Assembly (NCBI GenBank): GCA_963733095.1
Contig: CAVTBV010000014.1
Coordinates: 1-64,000, forward strand
Source: Candidatus Bathyarchaeota archaeon
GTDB lineage: Archaea; Thermoproteota; Bathyarchaeia; Bathyarchaeales; Bathycorpusculaceae
Length of the DNA stretch: 64,000 nucleotides
Reading direction: 5' to 3'
Position 1 is the first letter of the stretch; each line of letters begins with the position of its first letter. Position numbers and translations under genes: made by a program. Positions 3,160 to 39,306 of the stretch are shown piece after piece. The notes beneath the pieces were generated by a model. The model did not search any database, was not told where the DNA came from, and was given only the letters and a program-made list of their open reading frames with translations.

Positions 3160-4014
3160 ATGCCGAAATTTCAAGTATACAAAGATACTGCAGGCAAACA
3201 CCGTTTTCGCCTCCGAGCAGACAACAATAAAATCGTAGCTGTAGGAGAAGCATACGAACAATACGCAGGCTGCATAAACGGCATCAAGAGCATACAGAAA
3301 AATTCCAAAGCGCCAGTTGAAGATATCACAGTTGAAGGGCAACGATTTTCAAACCCAAAATTCCAGGTTTACAAAGACAATGCTGGAAAGTTTAGGTTCC
3401 ATCTATACGCAAGAAACGGCGAGATCATTGCCGATAGTAGCGAAGGATATGAGACCAAAGATGCTTGCTTTAATGGCATTGATGTAGTAGGGCAAAGTGG
3501 CGATGCTGAAATCAAGGACCTGACTGAATCCGAAGAATCAACTGCAGAAAAGACCCAAGATGCTTCACCGACAATTTCTGCAGAAACGAAGACACCCCAA
3601 AGTATTGAGATGTCTAAACCTGAAGTGATCAAAATGGATAAAGAAGACGAAATATTAGCAGAGTTAAAAAAAATTAGTGCAGCTTTAGAAAAAGCTCCGC
3701 CACCAACACCGCCAAAAGGCTTTGTGAACGAGTTCAAGGATTTTTTGTCAAAGTACAAGATATTTGGCTTAGCTGTTGCTTTCATCTTAGCTTTGTATGC
3801 TGGCATTTTAATTCAGGCACTTGTTAAAGACTTCATCATTCCTCTCTTAGGCTTAGCAATCCCGGGAATGGCAAACCTAGCCACGTATGCAGTTGGCGTT
3901 ATGAGTCAGTCATTTGGCGTAGGAGACTTTCTAGTAGCACTAATAACTTTCATTATAGTGGCATTAATAGTGTTCGTTATAGTGAAAGTAGCCAAGAAAT
4001 GGCACATAGAATAA
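3160..4014 (+). CDS. tandem YegP/DUF1508 domains fused to a MscL-family channel, copy 1
   Basis: Two KFQVYKD.AGK.RF.L.A.NGEII...EGY repeats, an acidic linker, then EFKDFLSKYKIFGLAVAFIL...LVKDFIIPLL...VGDFLVALITFIIVA (MscL TM1/TM2). Confidence 0.88.
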   Translation: MPKFQVYKDTAGKHRFRLRADNNKIVAVGEAYEQYAGCINGIKSIQKNSKAPVEDITVEGQRFSNPKFQVYKDNAGKFRFHLYARNGEIIADSSEGYETKDACFNGIDVVGQSGDAEIKDLTESEESTAEKTQDASPTISAETKTPQSIEMSKPEVIKMDKEDEILAELKKISAALEKAPPPTPPKGFVNEFKDFLSKYKIFGLAVAFILALYAGILIQALVKDFIIPLLGLAIPGMANLATYAVGVMSQSFGVGDFLVALITFIIVALIVFVIVKVAKKWHIE

Positions 4015-8488: not shown

Positions 8489-8812
8489 CTAGTGTTTTTG
8501 GAGGGGAAGAGGCTTTGGCTTTGGAGCTAAAACCTCAAATGCTATATGTTGAGCCCACTTTTTGAGTTCTTTTTCTTTTTTGGCCATAAATCTCAGTTTG
8601 CATGGCATGCAGTAGAGGGGTATTTCGGTTGTTTGATTTAGCACTATCCCGCCGGCTAAACAAAGAATGTTTTGGTGTTTTTGACATTTTGGGCAAATCA
8701 ATATTGCTCGTTCCTGCTTGGTTTTTTCAGAACGATCGCCTTTGTTAGGTAGGCAATGTTCTGTTGGCTGGGTTCGTTTCCGGAAAAAATATGGAAACCA
8801 ACTATATCGCAA
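8489..8812 (-). CDS. hypothetical CxxC protein
   Basis: CPKC...CMPC; start uncertain. Confidence 0.4.
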   Translation of the reverse strand: MRYSWFPYFFRKRTQPTEHCLPNKGDRSEKTKQERAILICPKCQKHQNILCLAGGIVLNQTTEIPLYCMPCKLRFMAKKEKELKKWAQHIAFEVLAPKPKPLPLQKH

Positions 8813-8946
8813 ATATTAATATTTGTTTAAAAGTGTTGTGTATTTCAGCTTCAAGTCCACAATTGTTCAACAAAAATCCCAGCCACCCCAGAAAATCCGG
8901 CTAAAGATAATTTTGAAACATAGAAAGATAACGTCAACTTGCTGAG

Positions 8947-9156
8947 CTATAAATCGCTGGCCATCCGTAGCACCTGAGCGATTAAATCGTCACGTACACG
9001 GTCAGCCTCAGCCCTGGCTTCCCTTCGAGTCATCCCCTTCCTCATGTGCTCTTTAGCGTGAGCTTCAATAGCTTCCCCCATAGCCTCAACGCTGGGAACT
9101 AACAGAATTTCAGCTCCGCAATAACATTTAATCACGGGAAGTTCCAAGTTAAACAA
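8947..9156 (-). CDS. small hypothetical protein with CxC...H..H
   Basis: IKCYCGAEILLVP...IEAHAKEH; overlaps the end of the upstream gene (coupled). Confidence 0.7.
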   Translation of the reverse strand: MFNLELPVIKCYCGAEILLVPSVEAMGEAIEAHAKEHMRKGMTRREARAEADRVRDDLIAQVLRMASDL

Positions 9157-9502
9157 TCCTCATAACCTCGTTCTCTTGTGCTTTCTCTGCAGAGATGATT
9201 GGAAAGTGGTTTATGCTGAAGTTTTTGTCGATTGCTACTTTCAAATTAGAGAGTTCGCTTTTGTTTACGTTTATATTACATGAGCCGTCCAGGTTAAAAT
9301 CTAAAATCGTAAAATCTTGTTCCGAATCAAGCCTAAGCGAACTGTGAATCGGCTTAGGCCCCGTTAATGAAAATATTTCGGCGGTAAAATCGCTGTTTTG
9401 CTTGGCGAACTCTTTTAGCCTGTGTTTTTTTGGCACATATATCTCTATTTTTGCCGAAGCAAACCTGCAATTCAAGCATACATCGCTTTCCATGCTAACC
9501 AA
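9149..9502 (-). CDS. hypothetical protein
   Basis: 117-aa ORF overlapping the start of the next gene. Confidence 0.55.
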   Translation of the reverse strand: MVSMESDVCLNCRFASAKIEIYVPKKHRLKEFAKQNSDFTAEIFSLTGPKPIHSSLRLDSEQDFTILDFNLDGSCNINVNKSELSNLKVAIDKNFSINHFPIISAEKAQENEVMRIV

Positions 9503-9648
9503 CTTTGTCCCAAATGAGTGTTTATTCCAAGATAATGCTTTTTAAGAATTGGACTTCGCTTAGTTTGTTAATCAGAGTTTGCGGTTTTGTCAATATGAAC
9601 GGGCAAGCTTGTCAAGTTTGCTTCCTATGGAGGTATTTGCCTGTTTTC

Positions 9649-10032
9649 TTATTTTTTTTTGGTGGTTGGGCAGTGTTCAAAACCTAAAACAGCTGCTTGC
9701 TTCAGAATCCTGGTCAACTCGGGTTTTAATCTAACAAAGTTTCCAATTGACATGTGACGTACGTTCTCGTTTTTTTCTGCCACTCCCCGTCTCTTAAGCA
9801 AACCCGAGTCAAGACTTGCTCCCATCGCAAAATCCAAATCCACATGGTCTTGAAAATGGCTTATCCAGACAAAGTCTTTGTTCTCGAGTTTAAAGGTGAT
9901 TTTTCCATTCCTAACCATCTCGGTCGTTTCTGGAACGGCGATTTTGATTAGCTCACGGAGGTTTTGGATGGTTTCTTTTTGGGTTGGATTGAGGCTGCCT
10001 AAAATTTCATCTATAGTTCTTTGATTTACCAT
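9649..10032 (-). CDS. DUF1801/YdhG-like protein
   Basis: IDEILGSL...LRELIKIAVPETTE...HVDLDFAMGASL...VRHM. Confidence 0.75.
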   Translation of the reverse strand: MVNQRTIDEILGSLNPTQKETIQNLRELIKIAVPETTEMVRNGKITFKLENKDFVWISHFQDHVDLDFAMGASLDSGLLKRRGVAEKNENVRHMSIGNFVRLKPELTRILKQAAVLGFEHCPTTKKK

Positions 10033-10095
10033 AAATAAAACCACTAATAGAAGTTAGCTCTGGTGATTTTTATTGCTTGCGGGAGGAAGGACAGT

Positions 10096-10237
10096 CGGTT
10101 GAGTCTAAACCCCACTGCATACACCGCATAATCAGAAGCACTAGCCAATTCGCCTCCTTGATGTGATCTCAGCTACGCTTTAGCAGTTACTTAGCGACCA
10201 ATACTGCGTGTTAGCCATGAAGCGTGTTCCTCAACCG
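10096..10237 (-). ncRNA. candidate structured small RNA
   Basis: 8-bp terminal stem CGGTTGAG/CTCAACCG, internal stems ACGCTT/AAGCGT and GCAGT/ACTGC, TTATAA box ~26-30 nt upstream, pyrimidine tract downstream. Confidence 0.4.
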
Positions 10238-10363
10238 GAAAATACAACATTGCTTTTCATACTTTATAATGATGTTATGTTGGCACCCTAAGCCGCCAAC
10301 TATAAATGCGCTAAGTGAATGCAAAAAACTTAAACAATACCGCGTAGATGATACGATGCTGGT

Positions 10364-10485
10364 GCCGGGGTATCCGAGCCAGGTCTAAATAGGCGGCCAG
10401 ATAATTTGATTGCCTAAGATATGGAGGAGGACTTAAGATCCTCTGGCGCAGGCCTTCGTGGGTTCAAGTCCCACCCCCGGCACCA
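10364..10485 (+). tRNA. tRNA-Leu(TAA) with a 34-nt D-loop intron (10389-10422) and encoded CCA
   Basis: GCCGGGG/CCCCGGC acceptor, GAGGA-CTTAAGA-TCCTC anticodon arm, long variable arm, BHB GTCT-AAA...AGAT-ATG. Confidence 0.95.
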
Positions 10486-10548
10486 TAATGTTGAATTAGT
10501 ACGGGGGTTTGTCCAGATGGCGACTGCGCCAAAAACGTATTTTTTTTG

Positions 10549-11850
10549 TCATGACAGATTCTTCTTTCTGAATAGTTTATGTCCTTCAAAATCGCATACA
10601 AAATCAAATCCAGATTCAATGAGAACACATGCTTCAGCTTCAGTCTTGGCGATCTTTGATATGTAGTCAATTTCGTCTTTGAATAGTGCTTCTTCTAGCT
10701 GGATGTAAATGAGTGTATTTTTGATGTTCTTGTGTCCGAGTCGGTTCATAACGTAGAGAACATCTTTGGTGCGGTGGTAATCCATTGTTCCTCCCCAGGT
10801 TCTTAGCGTTTTGAACATGATTTTTTTGAGTCGTGGGTTATGGAGTTTTTCGGCGATTCGGTTACGCTGTTGATCGTAGTTGTCTCTAAAGTTGTCTAGG
10901 CTCATCTCGGGGAGGGCAAAGTAGTATTTTCCGTATGGTCTGGGTAGATTGTGTAGCATGCCGACGAGTTTTGGGCTCATTTTGAAGATTCTGGGGTTGC
11001 TGTTTTTTTCTGGGGTGATGTTTACTGTGTTGGTTTCAAAGTCAAAGTTATCGTCGCTGCTGTGCCAGATTTCTCCTGGTCTTGCATGTGTTTCCTTGAT
11101 CAACTGCACAAATGTTCCGACTCTAATGCTTAGTCCAGCGATTAGTTGGTCTATTTCGGTTTCTTTTGGTACGAAGGGTAGCTTTGGGATTGATTTGTAT
11201 GTCGGCGGAGTCCAGGTTCCTCCAACCATAGCTAAATAACTGCTGTATGCATCGACAGCATTTGCTTTTCTGCCTTCACACCAGGTTGTCTGCTTGGAGA
11301 TAACGGTTTTCACTGATTCTGGGTCATTGAAGTCTCCGTTGCGTCGCCAAAGTATCTTTAGTAACTTAGTGCGGCCCCTGATTGTTGCTATGCGCCGTCC
11401 TTCTTTTTGAAGGTACCATTCGTATTTAGCAAGTGTAGAGTTTATGTCAAAGGTTTCTTTCCGCAGAACATCAGTTACCTGTTGCTCTGCAACCAAATTT
11501 TTCACTTCTGCGCATATTTGGCGAGAAACTACTATGCCACGGTCGCTTTTTAATTCCTTCGTATCAATGGATAAGTCGTCTTTCAACAAGTTTTTTGCCG
11601 CTTCAACATCTTGTGGGTCACTGAAGCGTAACCCGCATCGACGGCAGAACCAACGCTGAATCTGTGATCCAAACATCGATGTGTAAGTTCCATCACGCCA
11701 AACAGTCTTAGTTTTGGGACCACACTTTGGGCATTTAATGGGTTGAGATTCTTTTTGGGGACAAAGCGTTTGGCTTGATTGCCACTCTTCAGTAAACGCA
11801 TTTTGTGATCCTACAGAGATGAAATTTGAAGAGCTACTTCTCCCTGAACC
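10549..11850 (-). CDS. tyrosine integrase with an N-terminal Zn ribbon
   Basis: Catalytic R (HARPGE), K (EKN), KTLR, LGHKN and TLIY. The frame is open upstream of the Met at 11676 through CPKC...WRDG...CRRC, but has no in-frame start codon. Confidence 0.9.
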   Translation of the reverse strand, partial: GSGRSSSSNFISVGSQNAFTEEWQSSQTLCPQKESQPIKCPKCGPKTKTVWRDGTYTSMFGSQIQRWFCRRCGLRFSDPQDVEAAKNLLKDDLSIDTKELKSDRGIVVSRQICAEVKNLVAEQQVTDVLRKETFDINSTLAKYEWYLQKEGRRIATIRGRTKLLKILWRRNGDFNDPESVKTVISKQTTWCEGRKANAVDAYSSYLAMVGGTWTPPTYKSIPKLPFVPKETEIDQLIAGLSIRVGTFVQLIKETHARPGEIWHSSDDNFDFETNTVNITPEKNSNPRIFKMSPKLVGMLHNLPRPYGKYYFALPEMSLDNFRDNYDQQRNRIAEKLHNPRLKKIMFKTLRTWGGTMDYHRTKDVLYVMNRLGHKNIKNTLIYIQLEEALFKDEIDYISKIAKTEAEACVLIESGFDFVCDFEGHKLFRKKNLS

Positions 11851-11912: not shown

Positions 11913-14560
11913 TCAACTGTTGACTTTTAACTGCTTACGCTTCTCGTCACAACATTCCTTGTGAGCTGGCTTATTCTCCGAAAAACTACTCTGCTCCCAA
12001 TCATTATCCATAAGGGGTTTTTGGCAGAAGTAGCAGACAAGCTGCAAGTAACTGCCTGCGGTTTCTTCTTTAATGTAAAATTGTGCATGCTCTTGTAATT
12101 TGACTTCAGAATGTTCAGTAACTTCAGAAACTACAGTTTTCGATGGTGAATTATCGTTTTTTTGAGAAAATGTCGGTGATATATTAACTTCAGTAACTTC
12201 AGTGTTCAAGTGTCCTGTGAGGCTTTGTTTTCCCATGATTACTGAAGTTTCTGAGGTTTCTGGGGTTTCTGAAGTTAGTTGCGAACCGTTAGGGAAGTAT
12301 CTTGCTTTCAAGCGGTCAATTAGAGTAGCGTCCCAGAAGAACCCTGCTTGTCCTTTCCCGCCTACTCTGCACTTTTCAAAACCCAATGCGGCAACTTTTC
12401 GTCCTATGAATCGGCTGGTAGCTTGGTCTTTCTCAGTTAACCCGTCGTTGAAAACCTCAGTTATTGCTTGAGTGCTAATTTTTCCTCCATCTACTTTGCT
12501 ATCGCTTTTGAGAAGTGCATCAAAGATTCTGGCTTCTACGCTTGCTTGTTCTGCATCAAGTCTGCTCTGTGTTATCTGTTTCATGTGCGCTATCAGTTTC
12601 TTTTTGACTTCTTCCGTTGGTGCTACTTGAATAAGGCTTATGAATAGTTCAATCACTCGCGCATTGCGAAAGTCTGCGTTTTCATTAACAAAAGCCGCTA
12701 CCATATCATTGCTTGCTTTCCCCAGATTTCTGAAGCGATACATCAACAGTTTGTTTCTTAGGTTTTTGGCTTTGTCTTCATCCATGAAAAGATTTAGTTT
12801 TCTAACTGCTCGGCTCATTGCCGTTATGATGCATCGACTTTGAAGTGTAGCGGCTAATTCCTCAGTTCCTGCCATGGCTTTAAATCCGAAAGTATCAAAC
12901 ATCCCAATCTGAGGATTACCTTCTTCTGTTTTCTCTATTTGAATGGCATACTGGCCTCTTCGGTAGCCACTGTTTAGGAGAGCTAAGACTTCAGCCATGC
13001 TTTCTTTGTTGTAAATTTCTGTCTCATCCAAGAGCAGAGTTGGGTGCCAAGCTTATAGTGCTCGAAATATTGCTGCTGCACTCATAGAGGTTGAGAGAAG
13101 GGCACGATAGCAAAGGCGTTGTAAGCATTCTAAACCTTCCGTTTTACCACTGGAAAGTGGTCCGAGGAAGAAAAGATAGGGAATAACCTTGAAGTCTTCT
13201 GGTCTCCATGAGGCTAGAACAAAACATGAGTAGACATCATAGAATAACTCGTTAGGTACATCAATGTGTTCTACCATGAAAGAGCGGATTTCACAATAGA
13301 GACTTTCTTCGCTCTCATAGTCTGTGAATGATTCTATAGGAAGCCATGGAAGGCGCGGCAGGGGAAAATACTGTAGCTCGTTGATGGTGTAGTTTCTCCA
13401 GATGTCAGTGTTTGATTGTAGCTTCTGTTCTATACGGTTCCAAACAGCGTAGTAGCTACCTTGGGCTTCTGATTTTAGCTGCTCAAAGATTACTTCGGTC
13501 GTTACTATACCTGGGCTACTAATTGGTTTAGAATCATCGCAGTTTTTTGATATATTTTTCCTGCCTGATTTTCCTGATTCTCCATTGAATGAACAATTTG
13601 GAAGGCAATACCCTAATTCAGTTATGGAGTTGCAGGTAGGTGTCTTTTCCGGATCTGCACTTGATATTTGAGTCCTGCAGGTGTTTGAGTCGAAGTCTCA
13701 TTGTTGCCGGAAGAGGTCAATTATCTCGTCGTCGCTGTAGCCATGGCGTTTGTATTCAGCTGCTATAGCCAAGCGCATTCTGTGACCATTGGGACCTGTC
13801 AGCTGCAGCTTGAGAGCTTCAACAATACAGGGCCTTGGTCTGTTGGATCCTGATCTAGGTTGTACTGGTTGACCTGGCTGAACCTGTTCTTTGAGTAGAC
13901 CCTGCTTCTTCATTACTGAGTTGAAGGTCTGCTCTATGCTCTCTACTTCAGTAAGGCAGTTGATGTTGATTTTGCGGTAACCTAGGCTTGGCGCCATCAG
14001 GCAAAGTTTCTTATCACCTAATAGCTCCAAGCTTGCGGTGTTATGATAGGTTCCGATGGTTTTGGGCTTGGTTTTGCTCCGTAGATTAAATGTTGCCCCT
14101 TGTTAACGGTCTGCTCCATGCAGGTAATTGGGAATTCTTTGAGCAGTATTCGACCTTTCTCTTTCACTTCACCGGTGACGTCGTTGCCTTTGCAGTCATA
14201 ATCCACTACAGCGAGATAGAGGCCATTTCTTGCTTGAGTTCCCAGTACAATAGCAAAAGCGTTAGCGCCATTCCAGTCAAGAGTTATGAATTCCTCGTCT
14301 GTTTGAAGTTGCGTTTCCCATTTCTTCCAACTTGGTGTAAGGATTATCTTTTCGTATTCTTCGCCTTTCTTTATGAGTTTGAAAGGGATCATGCTGAGAC
14401 CTAATGCATGATAGCTTCCAGCAGTGGCCTTGAGTTCCTCTTCAGTGGGCTGTTTAACGGTCTCTTGCGTCTCTGTCACCTTTCTGCTTTTTTGGGGAAA
14501 ATTCGCTACATGCTTCGTCTCTTGCAATACGCCATATTCTTCCTTTAGTGCATCTGCCAA
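11913..14560 (-). pseudogene. primase-polymerase + PriL-like Cys domain + P-loop helicase replication protein, disrupted
   Basis: Prim-Pol motifs (LSMIP, LAVVDYD, GQHLIY); frameshift near 14081; TGA at 13698; TAA at 13053; Walker A GPLSSGKT and Walker B TLLLDE. Confidence 0.85.
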
Positions 14561-30806: not shown

Positions 30807-31071
30807 TAGCTATGATAATTATTATTGTTTGGAACACGCCAAGCCATCTAGCAACTTTCTCTAAACTTCTTCCTGCAACGGGTATGTTCGTAAGAATACC
30901 CATTTATGAGGACTAATCGAGCGATTATGTCTACGATTTCAACTATCATTGATGAGCCCTCTGATTCTTTATTTTTCTGTTTTAATATAACAGGTCAAGC
31001 CTTGCCGTGCTTGCATATTGAACAAAAACCTTTTGTATTACATACTCTGTAATAACGAGTTTGGGGAGAAT

Positions 31072-31926
31072 ATGCCGAAATTTCAAGTATACAAAGATGC
31101 GGCAGGAAAATACCGTTTTCGCCTCCGAGCAGACAACAACAAAATCATAGCAGCAGGGGAAGCCTACGAGACCTATACAAGTTGCATAAACGGAATCAGA
31201 AGTGTACAGAGGAATTTCAATGCTCATGTTGAAGATACGACAGTTGAAGGGCAACGATTTTCAAACCCAAAATTCCAAATCTACAAAGACAACGCTGGAA
31301 AGTTTAGATTCCATCTGAACGCAAGAAACGGAGAAATAATCGCCGATAGTACCGAAGGATACGAGACAAAAGATGCGTGCTTCAACGGCATTGCTGTAGT
31401 GGGTCAAAGTGCTACTGCTGAAATCAAAGATCTAACACAATCCGAAGAGATTATTGCAGAAAACACTGGAGTCGCGACACCGGCAATATCTGCAGAAGCT
31501 AAGACACCCCAAAGTATTGAAATATCTAATACTGAAGTGATCAAAATGGATAGAGAAGATGAAATATTAGCTGAGTTAAAGAAAATTAGTGCAGCTTTAG
31601 AAAAAGCTCCACCACCAACTCCGCCGAAAGGCTTTGTGAACGAGTTTAAGGATTTTCTGTCAAAGTATAAAATCTTTGGATTGGCTGTAGCTTTTATTTT
31701 GGCTTTGTATGCTGGCATTTTAGTTCAGGCGCTTGTTAAAGACTTCATTATTCCGCTGCTGGGTTTAGTTATTCCGGGGATGTCTAATCTAGCTACGTAT
31801 ACAGCTACAGTGTTGAGTCAAGTGTTTGGCATAGGTGACTTTCTGATAGCGTTGATTACCTTCATTGTCGTTGCGTTGGTAGTATTCGTTGTTGTGAAAG
31901 TAGCTAAGAAATGGCACATAGAATAA
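31072..31926 (+). CDS. tandem YegP/DUF1508 domains fused to a MscL-family channel, copy 2
   Basis: Same 855-nt length and collinear sequence as 3160..4014; upstream promoter region also homologous. Confidence 0.88.
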   Translation: MPKFQVYKDAAGKYRFRLRADNNKIIAAGEAYETYTSCINGIRSVQRNFNAHVEDTTVEGQRFSNPKFQIYKDNAGKFRFHLNARNGEIIADSTEGYETKDACFNGIAVVGQSATAEIKDLTQSEEIIAENTGVATPAISAEAKTPQSIEISNTEVIKMDREDEILAELKKISAALEKAPPPTPPKGFVNEFKDFLSKYKIFGLAVAFILALYAGILVQALVKDFIIPLLGLVIPGMSNLATYTATVLSQVFGIGDFLIALITFIVVALVVFVVVKVAKKWHIE

Positions 31927-36263: not shown

Positions 36264-36737
36264 ATGGCAAAAGACGAGATCCCCGTAGTTATCGAAAAAG
36301 TTAATGCAGAAACTTTCGATAATTTTCTGGGTTTAATCAATAAGCTTGCTGAATACGAGAAACTTTCTCCACCTGATGAAGATGCAAAAAGAAGGTTACT
36401 GCGAGACTGTTTATCTGACAAACCCAAATATCAAGCGTTTATCGGAAAAATCGGCGACAAATACGTTTCTTACATGATTTTTTTCTTTACCTATTCGAGT
36501 TTCCTTGCACTGCCAACGCTCTTTCTGGAAGACATCTTTGTACTTGAAGCGTATCGAAGACACGAGGTGGGCAAAAAAATGTTCAACTTCCTAAAAGCCA
36601 CAGCTAAACGCGAAGGATGTGGCAGAATAGAGTTTACGGTTTTGAAATGGAACACGCCCGCGCAAAAATTCTATCAAAAGAACAGAGCCCAACGCTTAGA
36701 ATGGTACTTGTATCGTTTGGTAAGGGAAGATTTTTAG
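36264..36737 (+). CDS. GNAT acetyltransferase (SSAT-like)
   Basis: LAEYEKL, TYSSF...LFLEDIFV, VLKWNTPAQKFY. Confidence 0.88.
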   Translation: MAKDEIPVVIEKVNAETFDNFLGLINKLAEYEKLSPPDEDAKRRLLRDCLSDKPKYQAFIGKIGDKYVSYMIFFFTYSSFLALPTLFLEDIFVLEAYRRHEVGKKMFNFLKATAKREGCGRIEFTVLKWNTPAQKFYQKNRAQRLEWYLYRLVREDF

Positions 36738-37603
36738 TTTGGCATACTTGAGGGTTGGGCTGCTTTTCTTTGCAGAAACGTGTTCACAGCATCTATGAGC
36801 GCTTCACAAGCAAACCATCGCTCTTCCAAGGAACCATCTGTCTCCAATGTTTGGATTATTCTGCGGAATTTCTTTATCTCCTCCAGTACAGGTTCCCTTT
36901 TTCTGTCATACTCAGCCCGCAGTTCCTTTTGCTTGGCATTAAAATCCAGCATAACCAATTCAAGTTCCGCCTGCTTATCATTTAATTCCTGCACTATAAC
37001 CATCTCTTTCTGTTCCCTATCTTTTTTAGAAACACCGCGGAAAAACCCCGTTTTCATCCGAATAATCTTATCCTGCTCTTTTTTCAGGTGGTTTATGGTA
37101 CTGTATAGAAGCTTGATTTCGCTTTTTCTTTGACTTTGAATGTTTCCCGTCAAAGTTGCGTATTCTCCGTTGATTTGTTTTAGGCGACTTCTCCAATCTG
37201 TTAGATTCTTTAGTTCTTGATCAAGTGCAACTTCTTTGCGGCGCATGGCTTCAAGTTGAAACTTAATGCTGGCAAGTGCCTGCGCACGCTCCATCAGGAA
37301 TTGTTCATCTGCACCTACGTTTGGGTGTGACTCAAACTCGCTTAGAACATCTGTTACGTTTGTTAGCCAACGGTCAAAGTGCTCGCTGTACGGGGTAGAA
37401 CCAAACTTTTGGATGCCCAACGTATGCAACCGTTTGAGGGTTAATTCCGAAATTTCTCTTTCCGTTAAACTATGCTTCTCTTCCAGTATCGGCTTTTCAA
37501 TGCCTTTACGGATGCGTTTTCTATCCTTCCTTTTTTCGCGAAGAGGTTTTTTGTATCCGTGAATTGGACCTCTGGGCGGTTTCGCGCGAGGTTGGTATCC
37601 CAT
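36734..37603 (-). CDS. coiled-coil hypothetical protein
   Basis: Basic N-terminus and long E/K/L heptad-rich helices. Confidence 0.75.
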   Translation of the reverse strand: MGYQPRAKPPRGPIHGYKKPLREKRKDRKRIRKGIEKPILEEKHSLTEREISELTLKRLHTLGIQKFGSTPYSEHFDRWLTNVTDVLSEFESHPNVGADEQFLMERAQALASIKFQLEAMRRKEVALDQELKNLTDWRSRLKQINGEYATLTGNIQSQRKSEIKLLYSTINHLKKEQDKIIRMKTGFFRGVSKKDREQKEMVIVQELNDKQAELELVMLDFNAKQKELRAEYDRKREPVLEEIKKFRRIIQTLETDGSLEERWFACEALIDAVNTFLQRKAAQPSSMPN

Positions 37604-37787
37604 AAACAGAACGTAGCACTCTTGAAGTATTTACTTTGTGCCTAACTGACTCTTAGTATCCTTATCAATAAATCAAAATAAGTGAAAGCGGAGGATCCGT
37701 CGTTTAAAGATCCAAGTACCCATTGTTTTTCGCTCAAACCACAAACGTAATAAGTTTATCTTGCAAAGAAGAATCGGTGAAATGATT

Positions 37788-38285
37788 ATGCCAAAGTTTA
37801 CAGTTAACCCTAGCCGAATTGACCCATATAAGAAATTCAAGTTCATAGTAAAGTGGGATGGTAAAATCGTTGCTGGCGTCTCCAAGATGAGTCCGCTGAA
37901 ACGAACCACAGACGTCATCCTACACAGGGACGGAGGCGACGCTAACGTGGATCGGAAATCCCCCGGTAAAACCCATTATGACGCTATAACTCTGGAGCGG
38001 GGTGTAACTCATGATCTTGAGTTTGAAGGTTGGGCGAATTTGGTGTTTAATAAAAACAGTGGGTCGATGTCTCTTAAGAACTTCCGAAAAGACTTAGTCA
38101 TCGAATTACTCAACGAAGCGGGCGTTCCAGTGATAGCCTACAAGGTTTATAGAAGCTGGGTCTCAGAGTACACTGCGCTGCCTGAATTGGATGCAGGCGA
38201 AAACGCAGTTGCCATACAAAGCATAACCATCCAGCACGAAGGCTGGGAAAGAGACACTGGAGTCGTTGAACCCAAAGAAACATAG
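37788..38285 (+). CDS. T4 gp19-like tail-tube protein (eCIS Afp1/Afp5 type)
   Basis: DPYKKFKFIVKWDG...RKSPGKT.YDAITLERGVT...FRKDLVIELLNEAG...WVSEY.ALPELDA...EGWERD. Confidence 0.92.
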   Translation: MPKFTVNPSRIDPYKKFKFIVKWDGKIVAGVSKMSPLKRTTDVILHRDGGDANVDRKSPGKTHYDAITLERGVTHDLEFEGWANLVFNKNSGSMSLKNFRKDLVIELLNEAGVPVIAYKVYRSWVSEYTALPELDAGENAVAIQSITIQHEGWERDTGVVEPKET

Positions 38286-38306
38286 AACCGCAGGTAGGAT
38301 ACGCAC

Positions 38307-38981
38307 TTGCCAAACATCAATAGAGGAACCCTGATTCTGCTCGCCCCAAACGCCAAAGACGCCTCCATCTCTCAACAGAACGTTTTCTTTGTCTTCCAAT
38401 ACAACCCCGAAAAATTACTCCACACCTTCAACCAATCACTGCCCTCTGCCTTAGCTGCAAACACTTCGGACCCGCAGTGGTTCCCATCTGAGCTCTTCAA
38501 CTTAACCTTTGAACTCGACAGCACTGACCTTGACCCACCAGCTCAAAACCAGACCCTTACAAACTTTGGTGTCCATCCAGCTTTAGCCATGCTAGAGCTA
38601 ATGATGCAACCTCAAGTGGTAGGCAAACAAACATCGTTGCCCATTGTTGTGTTCAAATGGGGTTCAAATCGGTCGGTACCGGTTCGTTTGATCAGCATGA
38701 GCGTCGAAGAACAATCCTTCGATGTAATCTTGAACCCAACTCGCGCCATGGTCAGTTTGACGCTAAGAGTGCTTGATGCTTCCGAAGTCAACGGCAACCC
38801 CGGTGCCCAAAGCGTCTTTTCAAGTCATCAAGGCGTTCGAGCTACGTTGGTTGATGCGTATAAGCTGCAAACTGGGCAGGCGACCTTTGTTGGTGGTGTT
38901 GGGGTTGCAGGCGCCAGCAGAGTGTCAAGTGATGGGGGTTCTGTAGCTAGCGTTTTGGGCGTTCGAAAGAAAAGTGCTTGA
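38307..38981 (+). CDS. eCIS tube-initiator-like (CIS tube / Afp7-like) protein
   Basis: FQYNPEKL...FELDSTD...GVHPALAMLE...FKWG..RSVPVR...EE.FD..LNP.RA.VSL.LRVL. Confidence 0.78.
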   Translation: MPNINRGTLILLAPNAKDASISQQNVFFVFQYNPEKLLHTFNQSLPSALAANTSDPQWFPSELFNLTFELDSTDLDPPAQNQTLTNFGVHPALAMLELMMQPQVVGKQTSLPIVVFKWGSNRSVPVRLISMSVEEQSFDVILNPTRAMVSLTLRVLDASEVNGNPGAQSVFSSHQGVRATLVDAYKLQTGQATFVGGVGVAGASRVSSDGGSVASVLGVRKKSA

Positions 38982-39306
38982 TTCAACCTTTTTAGAAAAA
39001 ATAGGCAGGCTGGGCGAATATTTCAAATCGCTCGGCACCGCTTTCATAAATCATCTAGCTTTTCTGTATTAGTTTTTGTTTTAGATGCTTAATCTATAAT
39101 TTACTTCCTGATGTTTTCAACCGATTCGGCGACAGAAAGTAACCCCCACCTCTCCCGAAAGGTGCTTAAGGGCTTGTTTGCTCTCACAAGAGCATTGAAA
39201 AATACCGAAAGTTAAACTTCACGAGATTTTTCTGCAAAAATCAATTTTGTTTTTCTTAAATTTTGTTTGCTAACATTTAAATCAGGCGTTTAAATGCTTA
39301 GTTGAC

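Follow-up and report, generated by a model that had tools for sequence, protein, structure and literature searches.

A pair of adjacent genes in an archaeal genome, one encoding the inner-tube protein of a contractile injection system (CIS) and the other a putative tube initiator, has in our estimate about an even chance of being an autonomous, vertically inherited operon that is kept by selection and that derives from an eCIS of which it no longer forms part. CISs are treated as indivisible, a baseplate being regarded as the sole site on which tube and sheath can assemble, and surveys of genomes detect them via the full gene cluster. The source genome, G000 below (comparison genomes and contigs carry G and C numbers in the same way), is a 2.84-Mb Candidatus Bathyarchaeia MAG of 16 contigs, 95% complete; the group is abundant in sediment and soil, and these archaea have never been cultured. 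Bases 1-64000 of its contig C14, a stretch of 64,000 nucleotides, constitute the window analysed here, in which the operon comprises the following elements:

37736..37761, + strand: BRE/TATA-type promoter-like element, CC[A/G]CAA[A/G/C]C[G/A]TAA[T/A][A/T]
37788..38285, + strand: inner-tube protein of the gp19 / Afp1 / Pvc1 / Cis1 type, 165 aa, intact (PF06841)
38307..38981, + strand: Afp7/Pvc7/Cis7-type tube-initiator homologue, 224 aa, intact (PF19266 and AlphaFold2/Foldseek)
38989..38993, + strand: run of five T, 8 nt past the initiator stop codon, read from sequence

The product of the first gene matches the Pfam family PF06841 (Phage_T4_gp19) at E 3.9e-41 (140.5 bits, cut-off 28.2) and covers profile positions 2-134 of 134, hence the whole domain, and it also matches the PHROG 'tail tube protein' at E 4e-19. 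Its matches among PDB sequences are CIS tubes (All3324, 2.5e-15; Afp1, 1.3e-6; Pvc1, 2.9e-6), and in a genome profile scan it was the sole PF06841 match of G000. Orthologues from seven congeners are 75-91% identical to it. The ATG of the tube gene is preceded, 8-12 nt 5', by a GGTG Shine-Dalgarno-like motif, and 21 bases separate the gene from that of the initiator.

The second gene is a predicted Afp7-type tube initiator, as indicated by family membership and modelled fold. The protein matches PF19266 (CIS_tube) in Pfam at E 9.7e-8 (32.4 bits, cut-off 27) and has weak sequence matches in the PDB to 9gtp_P ('LysM domain-containing protein'), 8kea_P ('tube initiator') and 6rao_G, the last identified as Afp7 by profile search. 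An AlphaFold2 model computed from an alignment of 44 homologues (mean pLDDT 77.6) features a beta-rich tube-fold core to about residue 155, a long conserved helix at residues 165-188 and, from residue 196, a disordered tail with pLDDT below 50 that is Gly/Ala/Ser-rich and ends in basic residues. Within the same alignment the core is conserved and the tail variable, the tail of the sister-genus initiator being Ser/Thr/Lys-rich, again with basic residues at its end; we speculate that the basic tail could tether the ring to membrane or nucleic acid. The best Foldseek matches of the model are baseplate chains of PVC, AFP (6rao_G), the Streptomyces CIS, the Anabaena CIS and AlgoCIS, and the initiator of cyanophage A-1(L) (chains 9qgl_7A, 6rao_G, 9gtp_M, 6j0n_b, 7b5h_AK, 8kea_P and 7aeb_M), with E values of 2.3e-8 to 2e-6, a Foldseek probability of 1.0 and TM-scores of 0.43-0.50, so that the model has a tube fold like that of solved baseplate initiator chains. 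DSR2-tail-tube complexes appear among the distant matches, at ranks 23-34. Afp7 presumably carries a C-terminal LysM or peptidoglycan-binding-type domain, and LysM is the name given by depositors to 9gtp_P and 9rce_H; a Pfam search of the initiator at E<=0.01 found no LysM family, and the model past residue 155 consists of the helix and the tail. The nearest non-archaeal relative, from Elioraea (33-34% identity), takes the place of Afp7 in a full eCIS cluster, whose other members include gp25, Phage_base_V, eCIS_core, a Pvc16 cap and an AAA ATPase. Spike and baseplate genes thus stand beside the initiator gene in Elioraea, as they do in the congener G017, but not in G000.

Four congeners, G121 and G105 among them, encode the initiator and an AAA ATPase core (PF00004, E about 1e-23 to 1e-25) as one fused protein. 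Read by eye, its Walker A and B motifs are intact in G121 but degenerate in G092 and G114; the G000 initiator has no AAA domain. The fusion may point to an ATP-driven ring coaxial with the tube. When it was used to query the ESM Atlas, only clusters of small AAA ATPases were returned, with scores of at most 0.82.

Non-overlapping ORFs of at least 80 aa number 64 in the window, and a Pfam scan of 63 of these (the partial ORF at 1-252 was omitted) found no further CIS family. The original prediction, made from the window's sequence, had assigned an intact gp19-type tube gene and an intact Afp7-like gene to these positions, had described the pair as isolated among ordinary genes, and had listed sheath, VgrG/PAAR, baseplate, cap and AAA ATPase as missing from the window. 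The labels prove right by Pfam, PDB and Foldseek comparison, and the Pfam scan of 63 of the 64 ORFs bears out both the isolation and the absences.

Beyond the window, where the same prediction had proposed a search for sheath and baseplate genes and had held that the remaining eCIS genes, if present elsewhere in the genome, would count against it, one such gene came to light, for a sheath; baseplate, spike, cap and dedicated ATPase did not. The single sheath match of G000 lies at C3:68796-69875 (359 aa, PF04984 and PF17482), and its whole length can be aligned with the minimal sheaths Pvc2 (E 4.6e-54) and Afp2 (E 1e-39), its closest solved relative being the Halogeometricum Cis2 sheath 9ezm (E 9.5e-114). 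G000 thus does possess an eCIS-type sheath, though one unlinked to the pair: around the sheath gene lie ABC transporters, NUDIX, HerA, NurA, HIT and a cytochrome c assembly protein, and the 20 ORFs scanned there contain no other CIS family. In genome profile scans gp25, Baseplate_J and Phage_GPD gave sub-threshold noise only, and VgrG/Phage_base_V, PAAR, eCIS_core and T4_baseplate/DUF6760 were found neither by these scans nor by phmmer. A weak Baseplate_J match at G000:C9:196379 is a false positive inside a Pyr_redox_2 flavoprotein (pyridine-nucleotide-disulphide oxidoreductase), and a weak gp25 match at C7:22229 (12.8 bits, E 0.2) is not significant. Because the genome profile search missed the known PF19266 gene of G000, and very divergent baseplate genes may likewise escape it, we added queries from full eCIS clusters of the same genus: 22 proteins from G006:C191 and G017:C51 were run by phmmer against 30,495 six-frame ORFs of G000 at E<=1, with significant matches to the tube, the initiator and the sheath only. 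The unannotated proteins of these two clusters had no G000 homologue by phmmer, and a same-genus Pvc16_N query found no homologue of a Pvc16-type cap at E<=0.01. As to a dedicated AAA ATPase, the search of G000 returned only proteins of 745 aa and 404 aa, Cdc48- and PAN-sized.

To place the pair among its relatives, we used a sample of 120 species genomes of the genus with ORFs called by custom scripts; the comparison genomes are nearly all MAGs, most of them 85-100% complete, and absences of CIS genes were judged by sequence profiles, not folds. Orthologues of the pair are found in 22 of the 120 species at 54-91% identity, the initiators being 54-76% identical and the adjacent tubes, where inspected, 75-91%. 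In a sample of the class (401 genomes from 131 genera) initiator matches were confined to this genus and one sister genus, and the latter has the pair in seven of 12 sampled species, alone among ordinary genes in each of the four loci inspected; sheath and gp25 are both absent from four of five sister-genus pair genomes. The pair is therefore conserved alone in relatives, a point on which the original prediction had asked for evidence. An intact short sheath occurs in 28 of the 120 genus genomes at 58-76% identity, and gp25 in 13; among the 22 pair genomes only G106 has a gp25 match (29.9 bits), and among the 28 sheath genomes only G125. In G014, a single contig of 2.68 Mb, pair and sheath lie about 500 kb apart; gp25, Phage_base_V and Baseplate_J are absent from this genome and from G001, G010 and G002, which likewise have both pair and sheath, and all three families were detected in the positive control G006. 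Complete eCIS clusters are present in the more distant congeners G006 and G017, with tubes 61-67% identical to that of G000. Other arrangements in the genus include an operon of tube, Pvc16_N cap and sensor-domain genes flanked by PadR regulators, as well as solo tubes and a solo sheath.

The pair sits in a different setting in most congeners, with no recurrent defence gene beside it. What does accompany it is the promoter-like element, which is present in 12 of 12 orthologous loci at a fixed distance although the flanking genes differ, with its conserved core starting at 37740, 47-50 nt 5' of the start codon of the tube gene, and continued by AAG in nine of the 12. A position-weight scan of all G000 scored this site at 35.3 and the next best at 19.3, so that the motif is unique in the genome; by its sequence it would be the operon's own archaeal BRE/TATA promoter, and the five-T run is a possible archaeal oligo-T terminator. 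No upstream motif common to pair and sheath was seen. The divergent coiled-coil gene at 36734-37603 had been put forward as a possible partner, a suggestion that did not survive comparison: it is a core gene with homologues in 117 of the 120 genus genomes, pair present or absent, and the best homologue lies directly beside the pair in just four of the 22 pair genomes (G000, G106, G083 and G102). Directly upstream of the tube gene in G007, G015, G085 and G096 lies a gene for a multi-pass membrane protein, which was considered as a specific anchor and rejected, the family being present in 101 of 120 genomes and the G000 homologue lying on contig C6.

Selection was gauged by pairwise Nei-Gojobori estimates, of which we give the median dN/dS and, dS being saturated in many pairs, the number of pairs with finite dS, for the three CIS genes and three neighbours of the sheath gene:

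tube: median dN/dS 0.068, finite dS in 21 of 28 pairs
initiator: 0.165, 14 of 28 pairs
sheath: 0.116, 7 of 21 pairs
NurA (neighbour): 0.082, 10 of 10 pairs
NUDIX (neighbour): 0.094, 15 of 21 pairs
HerA (neighbour): 0.034, 7 of 10 pairs

In the sister genus dN/dS is about 0.10 for the tube and 0.24-0.29 for the initiator. With dS at about 1 or more, the species compared must be old. The GC3 values of the pair, 0.50 and 0.51, lie near the genome mean of 0.458 (SD 0.063), and tube, initiator and sheath all fall within about one SD of the genome's long ORFs, so these genes are not compositionally foreign. The pair is under purifying selection, resident and maintained. The tube tree places the eCIS tubes within a clade of orphan-module tubes; rooted only with distant in-genus tubes, it is compatible with an origin of the orphan pair from an eCIS and equally with the reverse.

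The relation between pair and sheath is looser. Pair and intact short sheath occur together in 14 genus genomes (odds ratio 10.5, uncorrected for shared ancestry), and in G121 and G105 homologues of short sheath, tube and initiator are clustered with only ordinary genes around them, the tubes being 66-67% and the short sheaths 46% identical to those of G000. Six genus pair genomes (G128, G083, G055, G120, G007 and G015) have no sheath match; the sheath of G012 is broken by a stop, broken copies also occur in G052, G101 and G103, and the sheath fragments of G106 are put down to assembly errors because HerA and NurA are in pieces there as well. Conversely, 14 genomes have the sheath without the pair, of which ten encode a different gp19 tube elsewhere and four encode none. 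A syntenic site common to seven genomes holds the sheath in the order MacB-type ABC transporter, NUDIX, HerA, NurA, 195-aa ORF and sheath. The short sheaths form one clade, which excludes the long eCIS sheaths; the tubes found alongside the short sheaths split over two deep clades, and sheath and tube trees are incongruent. Since the pair is present in many relatives that have no sheath gene, it is at least partly independent of the sheath; the conserved unit is the pair, with the sheath at most an optional companion.

These data bear unevenly on the ways in which two intact CIS genes might come to stand alone. That they are a decaying eCIS remnant in which both survived by chance, one of the two alternatives offered by the original prediction, would fit the complete eCIS of G006 and G017, with their 61-67% identical tubes, and the broken sheaths of G012, G052, G101 and G103, but we regard it as extremely improbable: orthologues are intact in 22 of 120 genus species and seven of 12 sister-genus species, dS reaches about 1 or more while dN/dS stays at 0.07-0.17 (0.068 and 0.165 for the pair, against 0.03-0.09 for neighbouring genes), the pair is accompanied by its conserved promoter-like motif, and the eCIS tubes branch from within the orphan-module tube clade, not from outside it. 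Conservation and dN/dS thus disfavour the remnant, and the alternative of an exapted module is the reading that survives. Very improbable, if a little less so, is a complete CIS with its remaining genes dispersed, too divergent to detect or located in the unassembled 5%. A sheath does lie on another contig, G000 is 95% complete in 16 contigs, and a profile search can miss weak family matches; on the other side, same-genus eCIS queries at E<=1 retrieved only tube, initiator and sheath, the single-contig G014 and three other genomes with pair and sheath lack gp25, Phage_base_V and Baseplate_J where the control G006 is positive, gp25 is absent from 21 of 22 pair genomes, and four of five sister-genus pair genomes have no sheath.

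The remaining alternatives concern what a maintained module would do. A baseplate-free contractile trio, that is, a sheath-tube filament in which the initiator replaces the baseplate as nucleus for both, draws on the clustering of the three genes without any other CIS gene in G121 and G105, on their co-occurrence in 14 of 22 pair genomes, and on a sheath that is under purifying selection and matches Pvc2 and Afp2, which are functional minimal sheaths, over its full length. In canonical systems the baseplate is thought necessary to start the extended sheath, and contractile function without one is to our knowledge unprecedented. Each component is also found without the others, the sheath stays at a fixed NurA/HerA site while the pair moves about, no upstream motif is shared, and sheath and tube phylogenies disagree, all of which makes the trio rather unlikely. 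Some support goes to roles that involve no filament, in which the proteins would be Hcp-like ring carriers or chaperones, host-encoded decoys that disturb the tail assembly of infecting myoviruses or of competing injection systems, or sensors and triggers in defence: the pair persists where sheath and baseplate are missing, the scattered single CIS parts of the genus fit repeated re-use, and the Foldseek matches to DSR2-tail-tube complexes show only that tail tubes can trigger defence. Since the initiator is kept with the tube gene, however, the pair is most simply explained as a nucleated tube, and the variable flanks offer no consistently adjacent defence genes, so that we hold such roles to be unlikely but worth keeping in mind.

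Returning to the autonomous operon, we infer ring formation, tube assembly, any sheathing and a non-injection role as follows. In contractile tails an initiator hexamer nucleates the stacking of tube hexamers. By analogy the Afp7-like protein would form a hexameric ring on which the gp19-type protein would stack into a hollow tube, one that would have no spike, baseplate, tape measure or cap, and in G000 the Afp2-like sheath from contig C3 may polymerise around this tube. Canonical triggered injection would not be expected without baseplate and spike, a re-used tubular structure being the likelier outcome, and the pair and sheath, in the absence of both, probably do a job other than injection. 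A more specific picture, which we offer tentatively as one possibility, is that of a non-contractile nanotube: an Afp7-like hexamer, having no LysM domain for docking to a baseplate and having six flexible, basic-ended tails in its stead, would nucleate an open-ended gp19 tube of unregulated length, the initiator-AAA+ fusion of sibling species would put an ATP-driven ring coaxial with the lumen, hinting at a conduit or threading device and not at a needle fired like a spring, and the separate Afp2-like sheath would be an optional coat.

The affinity of the module with Afp/PVC-type eCIS is evident from its PF06841 tube, which matches Afp1 and Pvc1, from a sheath that matches Pvc2 and Afp2 over its full length, from an initiator with a predicted Afp7-class fold and a length of 224 aa against 223-232 aa for the targets, and from the full clusters with close tube homologues in the same genus. 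Unlike those systems, G000 yielded no dedicated ATPase, Pvc16 cap, eCIS_core, VgrG/PAAR, Baseplate_J or gp25 in the searches, nor a tape measure candidate in the comparison with unannotated proteins of the same-genus clusters; its pair is unlinked to the sheath, which many relatives lack, and no LysM was detected in its initiator. The G000 sheath is of the single-chain Afp2/Pvc2 type; hallmarks of a Type VI secretion system are a TssB/TssC sheath, TssJLM or another membrane complex, and ClpV. The membrane-bound CIS of Halogeometricum borinquense (the 'archaeal T6SS') is archaeal too and supplies, in its Cis2 sheath 9ezm, the best solved relative of the G000 sheath; the haloarchaeal sheath has 574 aa with an extra domain, as against 359 aa in G000, where three scattered genes were found and no baseplate. 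The available text of the report on that system (PMC11566945) assigns 9ezm to its Cis2 sheath and describes 14 clustered structural genes, baseplate parts among them, and associated toxin-immunity pairs. One-domain sheath homologues in Bathyarchaeota are mentioned, their gene context not being given, in the available text of another paper (PMC9230969). A literature search found no paper on a stand-alone tube and initiator module or on CIS in Bathyarchaeia.

Overall, selection has preserved tube and initiator genes as a pair in two genera in which no baseplate or spike was found with it, and often without a sheath. Modules of this kind would be overlooked by cluster-based eCIS surveys. If the reading as an autonomous operon is true, individual CIS parts can persist and act independently of the whole machine. 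The pair, with or without its sheath, would then offer a minimal two- or three-protein system for tube nucleation and baseplate-free sheath formation, and would point to an unrecognised cell-biological structure in these uncultured archaea.

Complete extracellular contractile injection system (eCIS) clusters do occur in the genus, in two congeneric genomes:

L036 (G006:C191), complete eCIS cluster
L033 (G017:C51), complete eCIS cluster

Both encode a PAAR-like DUF4280 protein, gp25, two Baseplate_J proteins, a DUF6519/jacalin protein, a 570-aa sheath, a tube, T4_baseplate/DUF6760, eCIS_core proteins and Phage_base_V. Four further congeneric loci carry an Afp7-like tube-initiator domain and an AAA ATPase core within a single protein of 382-391 aa:

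L055 (G121), 9957-11105, initiator-AAA fusion
L056 (G105), 10347-11501, initiator-AAA fusion
L057 (G092), 8747-9922, initiator-AAA fusion
L058 (G114), 8965-10140, initiator-AAA fusion

In G121 and G105 the fusion gene shares its cluster with only two other CIS genes, one for a tube and one for a short sheath.

A different gp19-type tube, distinct from that of the window, forms an operon with a cap-like protein:

L051 (G008), 8501-10534, gp19 tube and Pvc16_N cap-like protein

This arrangement is conserved in L059, L060 and L061, and in three of the four loci includes a third member, a membrane protein that bears a sensor domain of the HK/GC/chemotaxis type. No sheath or baseplate gene is adjacent. 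The G008 operon is adjoined by two PadR-type regulators assigned by Pfam, homologues of which, identified by BLAST only, flank the operon at L059-L061.

In the source genome itself, a solo sheath gene lies outside the window, immediately preceded by a small ORF:

G000:C3:68200-68787 (L005 8200-8787), 195-aa ORF
G000:C3:68796-69875 (L005 8796-9875), Afp2/Pvc2-like sheath

The syntenic position of the sheath beside NurA/HerA is conserved in seven congeners. The G012 sheath gene is interrupted by a stop, and in G106 (L064, G106:C14:211000-230999) the genes for the sheath, NurA and HerA are each fragmented, which looks like assembly frameshift errors rather than gene decay. The 195-aa ORF, with no Pfam family, retains 82-97% identity across five genomes, and its unusually low dS (0.3-0.5, versus about 1-2 for its neighbours) suggests additional constraint at the nucleotide level.

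Within the window, four further genes were recorded:

3160-4014, +, DUF1508-MscL fusion, copy one
10549-11676, -, phage-integrase family (27.2 bits, barely above cut-off)
14018-14560, -, Prim-Pol-like
31018-31926, +, DUF1508-MscL fusion, copy two

The fusions, each combining an MscL-type mechanosensitive channel with two DUF1508 domains, are paralogues 27 kb apart with 84% identity across 284 aa. No tRNA gene was found within the window. The integrase-family and Prim-Pol-like genes are surrounded by ORFs of unknown function; GC is uneven along this stretch (0.38-0.43), which may represent an integrated element.
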